Below, one piece after another: positions 34,500 to 60,959 of a stretch of 64,000 nucleotides of DNA; within the stretch, counting starts at the first letter, position 1; each line of letters opens with the position of its first letter. Origin of the DNA: Pelagibacteraceae bacterium AG-422-N09 (GTDB taxonomy: Bacteria > Pseudomonadota > Alphaproteobacteria > Pelagibacterales > AG-422-B15); contig QCMV01000007.1 of NCBI GenBank assembly GCA_003213515.1, forward strand, positions 9,071 through 73,070. The letters run 5' to 3'. The notes beneath the pieces are model-generated. The model saw only the letters and a list, made by a program, of their open reading frames with translations, did no database searches and was not told the DNA's origin. A program made the position numbers and the translations under genes.

Positions 34500-35690
34500 A
34501 TGGAAAATGATAGCAAATTGACAGTCACGTATGCCGCCTTAGGTCACTTACTAATGCATATGTTTGCTGCATTCTATTTTGTTATAGTTCTAGCAATTGA
34601 AGACGACTGGAAGCTTAGCTACGATGAATTACTAAATCTTTGGTTTTTAGGATCTTTACTTGTGGGTTTGGGAGCCCTTCCTGCAGGATGGATCAGTGAT
34701 AAATGGAGTCGTTCTGGAATGATTGCAATTATGTTCATTGGCTTGGGAATTAGTTCATTATTATGTGGCTTGAGCGGAAATAAAGTTTCTTTATTTATCA
34801 GTTTATCATTACTTGGATTGTTTTGCGCTATCTATCATCCTGCTGGAATTTCATGGGTTGTTAACACTTCAAAGGAAACTGGTAAAGCGCTTGGCTTTAA
34901 TAATATTTTTGGGGGAGTAGGTATTGGATTAGGTGCCTTTTTTGCAGGAGTATTAATTGAACAAATTAATTGGCAAGCTGCCTTTATGCTGCCAGGATTG
35001 ATCTCATTAGTAGTTGGACTAAGTCTAACCTATCATCTTAAATCAGGAAAGATATCATTAAAGAATATATCTTCAGAGCAGTTTAAAGATAATCCTGAAA
35101 AAAATCAGATGCTAAAAATTGCAATTATTATGCTGTTAAGTATTACATGTTTGAGCTTTGTTTATCAAATTCTTCAGACAAGTCTTCCAAAGGCAATTGA
35201 TATCAGACTTACTGATAGTCTTGATTTATCTACTTCAGATATCGGTTACATAGTTGCTGCTATATATATTGTAAGTGGTTTAATGAATTATGTTGGAGGT
35301 ATTTTAACAGATAAATATTCTGAAAAGCTGATTTATTCAATTGGAATAGTTGGCCAAGGTGTCCTCTTGCTCTTAATTGTTAGTCTTTCAAATTACTGGT
35401 TAATTGCAATAAGTCTTGCAATCGTTGCTTTTAATTCAAGTATACTGCCTGCAGAAAATTTGTTACTTGCAAAATTTTCACCTGAAAAATATCAAAGCCT
35501 AGTCTACGGTATTAAATTTATTGTATCATTTACAGTTGGTCCTATTGCACTGATCATGATTTCGAGAAGCTATGATTTAACTGGTGAATTTGGTGTACTC
35601 TACTTAGCTTTTGGGTTTGTGATGATAATTATGTTTCTGATTGTATTAACTCTACCTGTAAAAAAAGTAATTACTGGTACAGCTGGGTAG
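34500..35690 (+). CDS. MFS transporter
   Basis: About 12 predicted TM helices and a GWISDKWSRSG loop 2-3 motif. The last 16 nt overlap tRNA-His on the other strand. Confidence 0.75.
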   Translation: MENDSKLTVTYAALGHLLMHMFAAFYFVIVLAIEDDWKLSYDELLNLWFLGSLLVGLGALPAGWISDKWSRSGMIAIMFIGLGISSLLCGLSGNKVSLFISLSLLGLFCAIYHPAGISWVVNTSKETGKALGFNNIFGGVGIGLGAFFAGVLIEQINWQAAFMLPGLISLVVGLSLTYHLKSGKISLKNISSEQFKDNPEKNQMLKIAIIMLLSITCLSFVYQILQTSLPKAIDIRLTDSLDLSTSDIGYIVAAIYIVSGLMNYVGGILTDKYSEKLIYSIGIVGQGVLLLLIVSLSNYWLIAISLAIVAFNSSILPAENLLLAKFSPEKYQSLVYGIKFIVSFTVGPIALIMISRSYDLTGEFGVLYLAFGFVMIIMFLIVLTLPVKKVITGTAG

Positions 35691-35751
35691 ATTCGAACTA
35701 CCGACCTCCTGAACCACAACCAGGCGCTCTAACCAACTGAGCTACAGCTGC
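35675..35751 (-). tRNA. tRNA-His (anticodon GUG), no encoded G-1, G1:U72, A73, CCA encoded
   Basis: Hand-folded cloverleaf: GCAGCUG-UA-GCUC-AGUUGGUUA-GAGC-G-CCUGG-UUGUGGU-UCAGG-AGGUC-GGUAG-UUCGAAU-CUACC-CAGCUGU-A-CCA. Confidence 0.9.
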
Positions 35752-35756
35752 ATAAG

Positions 35757-35832
35757 TGGTGGCTCGAGGTGGAATTGAACCACCGACACAAGGATTTTCA
35801 GTCCTTTGCTCTACCAACTGAGCTATCGAGCC
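35757..35832 (-). tRNA. tRNA-Phe (anticodon GAA), CCA encoded
   Basis: Hand-folded cloverleaf: GGCUCGA-UA-GCUC-AGUUGGUA-GAGC-A-AAGGA-CUGAAAA-UCCUU-GUGUC-GGUGG-UUCAAUU-CCACC-UCGAGCC-A-CCA. Confidence 0.92.
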
Positions 35833-57081: not shown

Positions 57082-58005
57082 ATGCAAAATGTCGTCTCAG
57101 TAAAAAATTTATCTAAAACTTACAGTAATCAATTTCAGGCACTTAATAATATTAATTTAGATATCAAACAGAATGAAATATTTGCACTTCTTGGACCTAA
57201 TGGTGCAGGTAAAACAACTTTAATTAGTATTATTTGCGGAATTGTAACACCAAGTATTGGGACAGTTGAGGTTGGTAACTACGATATTATAAAAGATTAT
57301 AGAAAAACTAGGTCACAAATTGGACTCGTCCCTCAGGAGCTAACCTTAGAACAATTTGAAATTGTTTATAACAATGTATCCTACACGAGAGGCTTATACG
57401 GCAAACCTCCTAATCCTCAGCATATTGAAAAAATACTAAAAGATTTAAGTTTGTGGGATAAAAAAGACTCCAAAATTAACGAGCTTTCTGGTGGAATGAA
57501 AAGAAGAGTCTTGATTGCAAAAGCTCTTTCTCATGAACCTTCGGTCTTATTTCTTGATGAGCCAACAGCCGGGGTTGATGTCGAATTAAGAAAAGACATG
57601 TGGGAAGTCATTAAGAATTTAAGAAATAAAGGTGTTACAATAATTTTAACAACTCATTATATAGAAGAAGCAGAGGCAATTGCTGACCGGGTAGCAGTAA
57701 TTAATAAAGGTGAGATGATAATAGTTGATGAGACTTCAAATTTAATAAAAAGTTTAGGCCAGAAAACTCTAACAATTGATTTACATGAAACAGTTAAGAC
57801 ATTACCTGAATCACTTAAAAATTATAAACTTACTATAGTTAATGAAGGTTTATCAATTGATTACCAATACGATACACAAAGCAAACAAACTGGAATAACC
57901 TCTCTCTTGCAAGATATGAAAGAAGCTGGATTAAAACTAAAAGATTTAAATACAGAACAAAGTTCACTTGAAAAAATCTTTGTAGAATTGGTAAAGGAAA
58001 AATAA
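57082..58005 (+). CDS. ABC-2-type transporter ATP-binding protein
   Basis: GPNGAGKTT, LSGGMKRR, LFLDEPTAGVD motifs. Confidence 0.85.
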   Translation: MQNVVSVKNLSKTYSNQFQALNNINLDIKQNEIFALLGPNGAGKTTLISIICGIVTPSIGTVEVGNYDIIKDYRKTRSQIGLVPQELTLEQFEIVYNNVSYTRGLYGKPPNPQHIEKILKDLSLWDKKDSKINELSGGMKRRVLIAKALSHEPSVLFLDEPTAGVDVELRKDMWEVIKNLRNKGVTIILTTHYIEEAEAIADRVAVINKGEMIIVDETSNLIKSLGQKTLTIDLHETVKTLPESLKNYKLTIVNEGLSIDYQYDTQSKQTGITSLLQDMKEAGLKLKDLNTEQSSLEKIFVELVKEK

Positions 58006-58766
58006 TGAATTTCTACGCTATTAGAGCAATTTATTTTCATGAAATGGATCGAATGAGAAGAACTCTTTTTCAAAGCGTGCTTTCACCTGTACTTTCAACT
58101 TCTTTATATTTCATTGTATTCGGTTCAGTTATTGGAGGCATGATTCCTCAAATTGAAGGAGTTAGTTATGGGTCATTTATTGTACCTGGTTTATTGATGC
58201 TGACTTTGTTGACTCAAAGCATTTCAAACTCATCATTTGGAATATTCTTTCCTAAATTTACTGGATCTATTTATGAAGTTCTTGCGGCACCTGTTTCCTC
58301 TTTAGAAATTATCATTGGTTTTGTCGGCGCCAGTGCAACCAAATCACTTATTGTTGGCGTCATTATACTCATTACTGCAACTTTCTTTGTTGAACTAGAA
58401 ATTCAATATCCCTTATTAATGTTTTTTCTTCTGGTATTAACATGTCTTACATTTAGTCTTTTTGGATTTCTTATTGGACTGCTCAGTGAAAATTTTGAAC
58501 AGTTGCAAGTTGTACCACTTATCATCGTCACCCCTTTAGTTTTTTTAGGTGGTAGTCTTTACACCGTAGAAATGCTTCCAGAATTTTGGCAAAACGTAAC
58601 TTACTTTAATCCAGTTTTATATCTTGTGAATGGCATGAGATGGTCCTTTTACGGGGCATCTGATATTAATATTTGGGTCAGTGTAATCTCTCTAGTTGCT
58701 TTCCTAAGCATCTGTGTTGCTGGCGTGGCAATTGCTATCACAAAAGGCTATGGTACAAAAGAGTAA
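58005..58766 (+). CDS. ABC-2-type transporter permease
   Basis: Six-TM ABC-2 membrane protein, start overlapping the ATPase stop. Confidence 0.8.
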   Translation: MNFYAIRAIYFHEMDRMRRTLFQSVLSPVLSTSLYFIVFGSVIGGMIPQIEGVSYGSFIVPGLLMLTLLTQSISNSSFGIFFPKFTGSIYEVLAAPVSSLEIIIGFVGASATKSLIVGVIILITATFFVELEIQYPLLMFFLLVLTCLTFSLFGFLIGLLSENFEQLQVVPLIIVTPLVFLGGSLYTVEMLPEFWQNVTYFNPVLYLVNGMRWSFYGASDINIWVSVISLVAFLSICVAGVAIAITKGYGTKE

Positions 58767-58776
58767 TTTCTATTAA

Positions 58777-58850
58777 GCCCCTATCGCTTAATAGTAAAGC
58801 AGGTCATTGGTAATGATCAGCCGCTGGAGCGTAACCAGCTAGGGGCACCA
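58777..58850 (+). tRNA. tRNA-like cloverleaf, anticodon GGU (Thr), with non-canonical D and T loops; possibly a pseudo-tRNA or tRNA-like element
   Basis: Hand fold: GCCCCUA-UC-GCUU-AAUAGUA-AAGC-A-GGUCA-UUGGUAA-UGAUC-AGCC-GCUGG-AGCGUAA-CCAGC-UAGGGGC-A-CCA. All four stems pair and U8, U33, G53:C61 and an encoded CCA are present. GG18/19 and T54-Psi55 equivalents are absent. Confidence 0.5.
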
Positions 58851-60959
58851 CTAAAATCCACTTTCTCTGATTAATGTTGATGAAACCAAATTAAATAAAT
58901 TTTGAAAAATATTATAGTTTTCAGTCTGAATTTTTACTTTACCTGCTGTTTGCCATTGAACAGTCTCAACTTCTGTACTTGTAGAAAAATTCAGCTGGTA
59001 TAAAGCTTCTTCGGGTCGATAAATAACTTTTTCATCTCCCTTTACTTCACGTGATGCAATTGATCCACCAAAAGTAGATACTAGTGATAAGTAAGGAAGT
59101 TCTTCTGTCGATGTATTATTTTGCGAGACTAAGATAACTTCTGTTTCATCAAATTCATTATTTTTTGGAACAAAATAACCACTTGTATTACCTTCAAGTT
59201 TGTCTAAATCATTCTCACTTATAAATGCGACTACTTTTGTGTCATTGAATTGAACAATAGAAAATAATTTTTCTTTTATATTCACCCACTGTCCATTATT
59301 TAAATACTTTAGATCTTTTATTACCCCGCTCATTGGTGCATAGATTGAAAGATTTTCATTTTCCTCTTTAAGACTTTTAAGAATTTCAAATTCTACTTTC
59401 AATTGGTTTTCTAATACCATTAGGTTACTCATATCAGCTTCTGATCCAATTCGACGATCTAGTTTTTGCTGTATCATCTTTACGCGCTCAATGGCTTTAT
59501 CAACTTTGTTTGATAGAGACGGACTCATCATTGTAATTAATAAGTCACCCTTTTCGACTTGTTGATCTGAGACAACATAAATTTCTTTTATCTCAGAATC
59601 TTCTGTTGGGTAGATATCGACTACTTCACCTCGATCAATCACTGCAGGAAGGCTGAGTGAACTTCGCCATGGCATTAACATTGCTGCCAAAAATACTGAG
59701 AAAATAAAAATTGATCTCAAAGAAGTCCAATTAAAACGCATGTACCTTCTAAGTCCCCACCACTGTCTAATTTCTCTCCAAATTGGAAGTAAAATGAACC
59801 AAACAATCTCAATAATGAACAGGATTATACCAAGAATTTTGAATGTTAAATAATAAACTAATAAGGCAATCCCAATAAATATAAAGAAGCGATATATCCA
59901 TGTCATCCACGCGTAAATGATGAAAGTCCACCGTCTTCGACTCATGAGTTGTTCCGGTGGTTGGAATTTAAATCCAAAGATCCATTCTCTAATCTGCCAT
60001 CGACCTAAAGCAAAGGAACGCGGTTGAAGATTTTCCGCTTTAAGAAAATCTGAGAGCACATAGTATCCGTCAAATCTCATAAACGGGCTAATATTAATAA
60101 GAAGTGATGATATCCAGCTTGAAGTCGCAATAAAAAATGAAGCACTTTTGATAACGCCATCAGGGCTTACAGCCCAAACAAATGTAGCAAGAAGGGCAAG
60201 ATGCAATTCAGTCAGCATACCAGCAAAATTAATCAGTAAGCGTTTTCTATGATCAGTTAATTTATAAGCATCAGTTGTATCTGTGTATAAGAAGGGGAAA
60301 AAAACCAGCATTGCAAGCCCAATTGAAGAAACTTTGCATTTATAATAAGTGGCAACATATGCATGCCCAAGTTCGTGCAAGGCTTTTACAAAAACAATCG
60401 TTATACCAAACAAAATCAGTCCATTAACATTAAAGAAATAAGAAAATGTTGTTAAAAAGGTTTCATAGTTTTGGATTGTTAAAAAAATACCAATGATCCC
60501 CAAAATATAAATTATTAGTCTGCTGGTTTGCGATCCAATAAACAACGCAAAAGGTAAACTGTTTTCTAGACCATTTCCTGGTTTGAATAATGGGACTTTA
60601 AAGAACAAATAATTATGAATAATTTTTAACAGCCAATGCTTGTTAAGTTTCTCTTTTTGAACAACTAAAGATTTAACTTCATCACCTGTTTTTTTTATAG
60701 TTAAATTATTGAGATTTAGAAAACTGATAAATTCTTCAATTTCTTCTTGTGTAATAGACAAATTACTTTTTTTAATTTTTTCAATAAATTCTGTTGTCTC
60801 AATTCCACCTGACCAATTTTTAAGGAGATCAAATGCTTTTTTGTTTATTGAAAAGTATTTATTTCTTAATGAGTCATAAAGAAGCCACGATGCTGATCCG
60901 TCTTCTTTCTTTGGTCCCTCACTGAGTTTCAAATCTTGTCGGATAGACGGTACAATCAT
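58851..60959 (-). CDS. Polytopic M50 (site-2-protease-like) zinc metalloprotease fused to a C-terminal HlyD-type periplasmic domain
   Basis: HELGH at aa 195-199, NISPFMRFDGYY at aa 289-300, and multiple TM helices. The C-terminal 250 aa carry VEKGDLLITMMSP, a coiled coil, IYAPMSGVIKDL (split lipoyl/barrel-sandwich hairpin) and a beta-barrel. Confidence 0.7.
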   Translation of the reverse strand: MIVPSIRQDLKLSEGPKKEDGSASWLLYDSLRNKYFSINKKAFDLLKNWSGGIETTEFIEKIKKSNLSITQEEIEEFISFLNLNNLTIKKTGDEVKSLVVQKEKLNKHWLLKIIHNYLFFKVPLFKPGNGLENSLPFALFIGSQTSRLIIYILGIIGIFLTIQNYETFLTTFSYFFNVNGLILFGITIVFVKALHELGHAYVATYYKCKVSSIGLAMLVFFPFLYTDTTDAYKLTDHRKRLLINFAGMLTELHLALLATFVWAVSPDGVIKSASFFIATSSWISSLLINISPFMRFDGYYVLSDFLKAENLQPRSFALGRWQIREWIFGFKFQPPEQLMSRRRWTFIIYAWMTWIYRFFIFIGIALLVYYLTFKILGIILFIIEIVWFILLPIWREIRQWWGLRRYMRFNWTSLRSIFIFSVFLAAMLMPWRSSLSLPAVIDRGEVVDIYPTEDSEIKEIYVVSDQQVEKGDLLITMMSPSLSNKVDKAIERVKMIQQKLDRRIGSEADMSNLMVLENQLKVEFEILKSLKEENENLSIYAPMSGVIKDLKYLNNGQWVNIKEKLFSIVQFNDTKVVAFISENDLDKLEGNTSGYFVPKNNEFDETEVILVSQNNTSTEELPYLSLVSTFGGSIASREVKGDEKVIYRPEEALYQLNFSTSTEVETVQWQTAGKVKIQTENYNIFQNLFNLVSSTLIRESGF

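Follow-up and report, generated by a model that had tools for sequence, protein, structure and literature searches.

The locus and its tRNA gene

The window, i.e., the whole stretch of 64,000 nucleotides analysed from Pelagibacteraceae bacterium AG-422-N09, contains a tRNA-Thr(GGU) gene of 74 nt at positions 58777–58850 of the forward strand, with the discriminator A at 58847 and an encoded CCA at 58848–58850. Upstream, on the same strand, lies the gene of an ABC-2 type permease (58005–58766; stop codon 58764–58766). Downstream follows a convergent gene on the reverse strand, an M50 peptidase/HlyD fusion (58851–60959), the stop codon of which (58851–58853) touches the CCA. An earlier sequence-only reading of this DNA let the 74 nt fill the space between the two stops. 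The cloverleaf is indeed found there, but the gap comprises 84 nt, and the tRNA begins 10 nt past the ABC-2 stop. A scan for promoters and terminators at the tRNA yielded nothing above chance and no terminator. Because the 10-nt gap lacks a promoter-like site, we infer co-transcription with the ABC-2 gene.

The stems are an acceptor stem of 7 bp (GCCCCUA/UAGGGGC), a D stem of 4 bp (GCUU/AAGC), an anticodon stem of 5 bp including one G-U pair (GGUCA/UGAUC) and a T stem of 5 bp (GCUGG/CCAGC). The anticodon GGU (58809–58811) sits inside the loop UUGGUAA (58807–58813). The D loop, AAUAGUA (58790–58796), reads A14, A15, U16, A18 in place of G18, G19, U20 and A21 in the numbering of the Rfam alignment. 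The variable loop has 4 nt (AGCC, 58819–58822); its C48 stands opposite A15, and A15/C48 replaces the usual A15/U48 or G15/C48. The T loop, AGCGUAA (58828–58834), reads A54, G55, C56, G57, U58, A59 and A60. All these elements lie on the forward strand.

G18, T54, Psi55 and A58 are, by textbook knowledge, nearly universal in cytoplasmic tRNAs. Judged from the sequence and the Rfam alignment, the core marks U8, A14, G19-C56, purine 57, G53-C61, U33 and A37 are all present. Missing are G18, U54, U55, A58 and an R15/Y48 pair of the G-C or A-U type; A18, A54, G55, U58 and A15/C48 are found instead. The bacterial threonyl-tRNA synthetase, according to the rules established for E. coli, recognizes G1-C72, C2-G71, G35 and U36. 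The gene has all of these identity nucleotides.

Detection and fold

The Rfam tRNA model RF00005 matches the gene over model positions 1–71 of 71 with 50.9 bits (gathering cut-off 29; E = 5e-10). The minimum-free-energy fold of the 74 nt is the cloverleaf, with z = -3.07, and none of 200 shuffled sequences proved equally stable. The opposite strand of 58777–58850 folds no better than chance. The full cloverleaf with its stems, the anticodon GGU and the encoded CCA, all proposed from the sequence alone, are thus confirmed by sequence, Rfam and fold, and so is the T loop with A54 and U58. The D loop had been described as lacking both G18 and G19. G18 is indeed replaced by A, but one G is kept, which Rfam aligns as G19. 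Apart from this retained G and the 10-nt spacer, the earlier description was right.

ARAGORN gave no call for the gene, be it in the window, in the genome or at the loci of relatives; its only calls in the window are a tRNA-His and a tRNA-Phe. Genomes of this kind can therefore be scored as missing a tRNA. The tRNA-His/tRNA-Phe pair lies at 35675–35832; for Pelagibacter genomes, a preprint reports that a Phe/His tRNA pair anchors the genus-wide hypervariable region (10.64898/2026.04.03.716430).

The place of the gene in the tRNA set

The assembly to which the window belongs (G000) comprises 1.22 Mb in 27 contigs, has 33% GC and is 85% complete. Rfam finds 27 tRNAs in it. The gene at 58777–58850 is the only Thr candidate among them; Thr(UGU) is not assembled. 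By Rfam score it ranks 26th of the 27. A canonical tRNA-Thr(GGU) elsewhere in the genome, which the sequence-only reading had suggested to look for, does not show up among these hits. That the oddity is not genome-wide had been concluded from the two other tRNAs of the window, and it holds for the entire set: 26 of the 26 other tRNAs have a T loop of the UUCRANY type and GG in the D loop. G000 also encodes TruB. With canonical partners and TruB at hand, the departure at U55 is specific to tRNA-Thr(GGU). TrmFO (TIGR00137) was not found in G000, which carries little weight in an assembly of 85% completeness.

A more complete picture is provided by G024, which belongs to the same genus and is 99% complete. 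It yields 32 tRNA hits, and its only Thr genes are a canonical Thr(UGU) and the gene of the window. The set is near-minimal; Val(UAC) and Asp(GUC) are missing from the assembly. The four-codon boxes other than Pro each have a pair of tRNAs with G34 and U34, and tRNA-Thr(GGU) accordingly fills a regular slot. Its codons, ACU and ACC, make up 48% of the Thr codons or ~23 per 1000 codons. Pro has just one tRNA in this lineage, with the anticodon UGG, from which it follows that Thr(UGU) might read all ACN codons and tRNA-Thr(GGU) might be dispensable.

Covariance-model searches found a single Thr(GGU) gene in each of the genomes G000, G024, G065, G036, G071 and G083. In G036, a weak tRNA-like hit of 84 nt (35 bits; G036:C1:109090-109173, reverse strand) lies ~210 nt from the Thr(GGU) gene, on the opposite strand. 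In G030, a 90%-complete genome of the same genus, neither Thr(GGU) nor Thr(UGU) was hit at normal strength, the best hit scoring 43.6 bits; either the contigs with the Thr tRNAs are missing there or the tRNA set is different.

Conservation and covariation

A search of 60 relatives recovered the 74 nt with 100% identity from the genomes of 24 other species in the genus, whereas the alignable flanks are only 92–95% identical. More distant members of the genus, with flanks of ~75% identity, have the same 74 nt. One genome per GTDB species was then scanned with a pattern composed of the D loop, UUGGUAA and the T loop. It found 67 records, of which 66 are real cloverleafs. These are titled Pelagibacteraceae, Pelagibacterales, Rickettsiales or Alphaproteobacteria and come from marine samples; uncultured single-cell genomes and MAGs are among the carriers. 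The remaining one, L144 from an Omnitrophica MAG, matches the pattern by chance and forms no cloverleaf. The 74 nt of the window's gene recur unchanged in 33 of the 66 species records. A second form, identical in 25, comes from a different GTDB order, which comprises 42 genomes.

The records comprise 11 distinct variants with this elbow (type A, see below) from two GTDB orders of SAR11-type bacteria. In their comparison, 99.6% of the cells are paired, against 26–46% in slid controls. The stem covariation that the sequence-only reading had proposed to look for in relatives is there: in 11 of the 21 stem pairs both sides have changed in a compensatory manner. The T loop, the anticodon loop and the variable loop are invariant in the 11 variants; in the D loop six of seven positions are, and the sixth position is U or C. 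The Thr identity nucleotides are kept by 10 of the 11, one variant having U2-G71. RNAalifold, run on the variants, independently yields the same cloverleaf. As far as sequences can tell, this pattern of conservation and covariation excludes a pseudogene and a chance fold.

Marine metatranscriptome contigs from three studies span the gene without any internal variant, while both flanks are variable. They indicate that the gene is present and conserved in wild populations; RNA libraries can, of course, also hold DNA. Two contigs from RNA libraries begin exactly at 58777. Contigs, however, cannot reveal RNA ends, and the break more likely results from strain differences upstream; these starts were therefore given no weight as evidence of expression or processing. 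Another RNA-library contig (run X2) tracks the ABC-2 gene to its stop at 58766 and then continues into unrelated sequence, which means that wild relatives differ right at this junction.

The elbow as a matched package

Comparison of 45 distinct 74-nt Thr(GGU) sequences from both orders revealed that positions 18/55, 54/58 and 15/48 are perfectly associated. Only three combinations occur. Type A, to which the window's gene belongs, combines A/G, A/U and A/C with the T loop AGCGUAA (11 sequences). Type B combines G/U, G/G and A/U with the T loop GUCAGUA (17 sequences). Type C is canonical, with G/U, U/A and either A/U or G/C (17 sequences). A type D of 75 nt was seen at two loci, L098 (G147) and L101 (G084). 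It has the T loop UUAGAUU with A56, and GU for the usual GG in the D loop, and looks like a putative swap of pair 19/56 from G-C to U-A. In total there are at least four forms of the tRNA-Thr(GGU) gene, and each genome examined in full by covariance-model searches has one of them. Type A retains G19-C56, purine 57 and G53-C61. On structural grounds we infer that its replacement bases preserve the tertiary contacts as A18/G55, A54/U58 and A15/C48.

The types do not follow taxonomy. Types A and B are both found within the window's genus, in a second genus of its family and in the other order, and types B, C and D occur in Pelagibacteraceae; this tally includes one unpublished genome, G114. Instructive is the pair G027 (type A) and G065 (type B). 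The upstream gene is common to both, and their downstream gene is 90% identical from ~25 nt past the CCA; G027 has ~420 extra nt upstream of the tRNA. In their flanks the two resemble each other more than either resembles G024 (~75%), which is also of type A. The allele type thus does not track relatedness. Such allele differences at one locus would point to recombination or mobile elements as the agents of replacement.

The type A elbow (AAUAGUA ... G-AGCGUAA-C) was also seen on tRNA-Val(GAC) and tRNA-His(GUG) of Pelagibacteraceae (G038:C1:434374-434420; G039:C1:241564-241610 and 632188-632233). The window's genome has canonical versions of both. Among 400 alphaproteobacterial genomes sampled from 308 genera, recognised tRNA matches to the type A elbow were confined to SAR11-type families. 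The class-wide search for the elbow pattern returned mostly chance matches, about as many as the control with the reversed pattern.

The same elbow in viral tRNAs

A motif made of the D loop UAAUAGUA, 30–32 nt and G-AGCGUAA-C was found in more than 120 viral contigs of IMG/VR, counting the matches listed. Cloverleafs account for 59 of the 83 viral matches examined. Their anticodons are of 14 kinds, Gln and Asp predominating, and CCA is encoded in 43. The pattern of type A Thr(GGU) itself is matched by 17 viral contigs; most of these matches are cloverleafs, and position 48 is usually C. Even the best of them agrees with the window's gene at only 56 of 74 nt, and a recent transfer accordingly has no support. 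BLAST of the window's tRNA and of one viral tRNA-Asp with the alternative elbow against 50,697 records of cultured phages gave nothing meaningful.

A docking site for islands, empty in this genome

In some relatives the gene serves as the boundary of genomic islands. G003, G013 and G033 contain a perfect copy of nt 1–38 of the tRNA 3.6–11.5 kb upstream of the full gene, and G015 has a copy of nt 1–20 upstream of its full gene. The copy of nt 1–38 terminates just beyond the anticodon loop. In G003 it lies directly 3' of the ABC-2 stop, the very position of the full gene in the window.

The cargo differs. In G003, 11.5 kb with the genes of a urea ABC transporter and urease lie between the copy of nt 1–38 and the full tRNA-Thr (L209, G003:C18, 485–12139). 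In G015, 5.3 kb with urease genes only lie between the copy of nt 1–20 and the full gene (L212, G015:C3, 1520–6949). The island of G013, enclosed by two tRNA copies (L210, G013:C5, 1535–11126), encodes a ResIII/DEAD helicase, a wHTH protein, a CHAT-domain protein of 1066 amino acids, several family-less ORFs and small regulators; islands are stacked here, the helicase/CHAT island behind a urease block. That of G033 encodes DUF4116 and T5orf172 proteins. Besides urease and urea uptake, part of the cargo is thus defence-like. Scans of the G003, G013 and G033 islands against Pfam and PHROGs recognised no integrase or site-specific recombinase.

Next to the repeats, the ends of the islands are conserved and fall into two classes. 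One is represented by the ~215 nt between an M50 relic and the full tRNA, which are conserved between G003 and G015. The relic, located in G003 (L209, 11836–12066), repeats the end of the M50/HlyD gene over 16 nt without a mismatch, follows directly on the ureG stop and lies ~215 nt upstream of the full tRNA.

Searches of G000 itself found neither a partial tRNA copy nor a conserved island-end motif: its docking site is empty. The order ABC-2, tRNA, M50 without insertions is found at 13 of the relatives' loci examined. More generally, the neighbours of the gene on both flanks change among relatives, and the tRNA stays unchanged.

The sequence-only reading had considered the gene the remnant of an integration site bordering the HlyD/M50 module and had advised to look for repeats of its 3' half. 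Islands do dock at this gene in relatives, but the repeated part is the 5' half (nt 1–38), the islands are on the ABC-2 side and not on the HlyD/M50 side, and the site of the window is vacant. A search for 3'-half repeats would thus miss those of the relatives. An exact search for nt 1–38 in viral contigs had no match and hence yielded no candidate for an integrating phage. One viral contig (L360, IMGVR_UViG_3300044491_003096) ends in a Pelagibacter tRNA-Thr(GGU) of type B (G54/G58), which shares 73 of 74 nt with a host allele and lies ~92 nt from one end; this contig end is probably a provirus boundary at the same tRNA gene.

A probable working tRNA and its alternatives

What has been observed comprises the structure of the gene, its uniqueness in the genome, its conservation, the covariation of its stems and the co-variation of the tertiary positions across alleles. 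The gene very probably encodes a working elongator tRNA for threonine that decodes ACC and ACU and probably relies on alternative, matched elbow contacts; expression, charging, use by the ribosome and the geometry of the contacts are deduced from sequence. The fallback of the sequence-only reading, an unusual functional tRNA if this should be the sole tRNA-Thr(GGU), has prevailed: the gene is the only GGU isoacceptor, is under strong purifying selection and has undergone compensatory changes in its stems. It is ordinary in role, being the cell's tRNA-Thr(GGU), and unusual in build.

The best surviving competitor is a tRNA outside ribosomal translation, either an amino-acid donor like the staphylococcal tRNA-Gly of cell-wall synthesis, or a processing or 3'-end signal for the convergent operons. 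The known non-proteinogenic tRNAs characteristically have non-canonical D and T loops, the gene sits between two operons without a promoter or terminator of its own, and Thr(UGU) could in principle serve the whole box, as Pro(UGG) does. Yet in the known cases a canonical isoacceptor with the same anticodon is present as well, and here it is lacking. The same elbow is seen on 14 anticodons in phage tRNA genes, and every genome checked in the order has a single Thr(GGU) gene of either the canonical or a variant kind, which is what one expects of translational tRNAs that can replace each other. The neighbours vary freely among relatives, which ties the gene to neither operon and contradicts the earlier suggestion of a tRNA-like regulatory or 3'-end RNA. 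We consider a role outside translation very unlikely.

Could the gene be a leftover attachment site, or a tRNA that the HlyD/M50 or ABC module brought along within a mobile island? The relatives' islands bounded by a copy of nt 1–38 and the full gene, the variable flanks on both sides, the different alleles at one locus in close relatives and the M50 relic beside ureG in G003 would fit. The evidence from G000 itself does not, with no partial copy or island-end motif; the undisturbed gene order at 13 relatives' loci speaks against it as well, and even the relatives' islands disclose no recombinase gene. For the locus of the window this explanation is thus exceedingly improbable, and a role as attachment site would, in any case, be compatible with a working tRNA.

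A decaying pseudogene or redundant duplicate of tRNA-Thr that has lost its elbow bases, as had been considered from the sequence alone, could account for the missing ARAGORN call, the low Rfam rank and the replacement of G18, U54, U55 and A58, four near-universal positions, but its chances are next to nil in view of the lack of another Thr(GGU) gene in G000 and the 99%-complete G024, of identity across dozens of species against alignable flanks that differ by 5–8% in close and ~25% in distant relatives, and of stems kept by compensatory change with the odd loops as the most conserved part.

How the tRNA may work and where its elbow may come from

As a working elongator, the tRNA would probably be transcribed with the upstream ABC operon and then be trimmed by RNase P. 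It would probably adopt the L shape via A18/G55 in place of G18/Psi55, A54/U58 in place of T54/A58 and A15/C48 in place of R15/Y48, with G19-C56, G57 and G53-C61 kept. Since U54 and U55 are missing, modification to T54 or Psi55 is not possible. Nor would the tRNA offer T-loop-reading enzymes the UUC motif on which they depend. A case in point is CbCash, a prokaryotic Schlafen nuclease that cleaves tRNA T loops at UUC; single changes of U54 or U55 abolish the cleavage (PMC13462974), and a type A tRNA is therefore expected to resist such enzymes.

An advantage of this kind would make more sense for phage tRNAs than for a host tRNA, which suggests that the host allele may have come from mobile DNA docking at the gene. 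A neutral reading has equal standing: the matched alternative may simply be as good as the canonical elbow. One may go further and regard the tRNA-Thr(GGU) gene of SAR11-type bacteria as a battleground locus. Docking elements with tRNA parts of their own would have repeatedly swapped the host allele and thereby imported phage-type elbows (A18/G55 with A54/U58, or G54/G58) devoid of the U54-U55 motif that T-loop-reading enzymes such as the Schlafen-type nuclease (PMC13462974) need; the coexisting alleles would be kept by selection, be it for nuclease escape or for private attachment sites, and not by drift. We offer this scenario as a speculation that is more probably wrong than right, and rather clearly so.

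A sole decoder of ~2% of the codons in a very abundant group of ocean bacteria dispenses with G18, T54, Psi55 and A58. This makes it a natural test case of what folding, RNase P, EF-Tu, the ribosome and the modification enzymes need of the elbow. The likeness to phage tRNAs, the allele swaps and the docking of islands together suggest how tRNA designs of the phage style may enter host genomes, and such a route can be tested.

Comparison with known systems

The obvious reference is the canonical bacterial elongator tRNA-Thr(GGU), represented by the thrT/thrV type of E. coli. Like the canonical genes of Pelagibacteraceae (e.g., L081–L097), the window's gene has stems of 7/4/5/5 bp, a variable loop of 4 nt, G1-C72, C2-G71, GGU, A37, the discriminator A and CCA, and occurs once in each genome checked. 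The canonical genes differ in having G18, U54, U55, A58 and Y48, where the window's gene has A18, A54, G55, U58 and a C48 that faces A15.

The non-proteinogenic tRNA-Gly of Staphylococcus is likewise a bacterial tRNA without GG18/19 and T-Psi-C. It feeds cell-wall synthesis and coexists with canonical isoacceptors, whereas the window's tRNA has no canonical twin.

T loops with A54/A58 are known from eukaryotic initiator tRNA-Met and tRNA-Ala(AGC) (PMC7566577, PMC7912444). They, too, exemplify a natural and functional loss of the T54-A58 pair together with a change at 15/48, but they keep A58 and G18/Psi55, while the window's tRNA has U58 and an altered 18/55. The combination of R15/A48 with A54/A58 has, according to PMC7566577, not been observed among bacterial and archaeal tRNAs. 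Reviews on the T loop and the elbow and the paper on unusual tertiary pairs do not list A18/G55 with A54/U58 (PMC7912444, PMC7566577). A full-text search of the literature for tRNAs with A54 and U58 in the T loop retrieved no paper; the design may nevertheless be published.

The docking in relatives has two counterparts. In pelagiphages, the attachment core overlaps with a SAR11 tRNA gene at its 5' end or in its middle, and the phage contributes a 5' part (10.1101/410191). In tycheposon-type islands of Prochlorococcus, partial tRNAs flank stacked cargo islands (10.1101/2020.12.28.424599). The relatives' repeats of nt 1–38 and the stacked islands of G013 resemble both systems. They differ in that Thr(GGU) is not among the sites mentioned in the parts of the two reports consulted (10.1101/410191, 10.1101/2020.12.28.424599), and in that the relatives' islands lack a recognisable integrase.

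The elbow itself recurs in tRNAs of uncultivated phages (IMG/VR), for which our search retrieved no published description. They share the D loop AAUAG-Y-A, the T arm G-AGCGUAA-C and, usually, C48 with the window's tRNA. The setting differs: on viral contigs the elbow is combined with many anticodons, whereas the window's gene is the sole isoacceptor of its cell.
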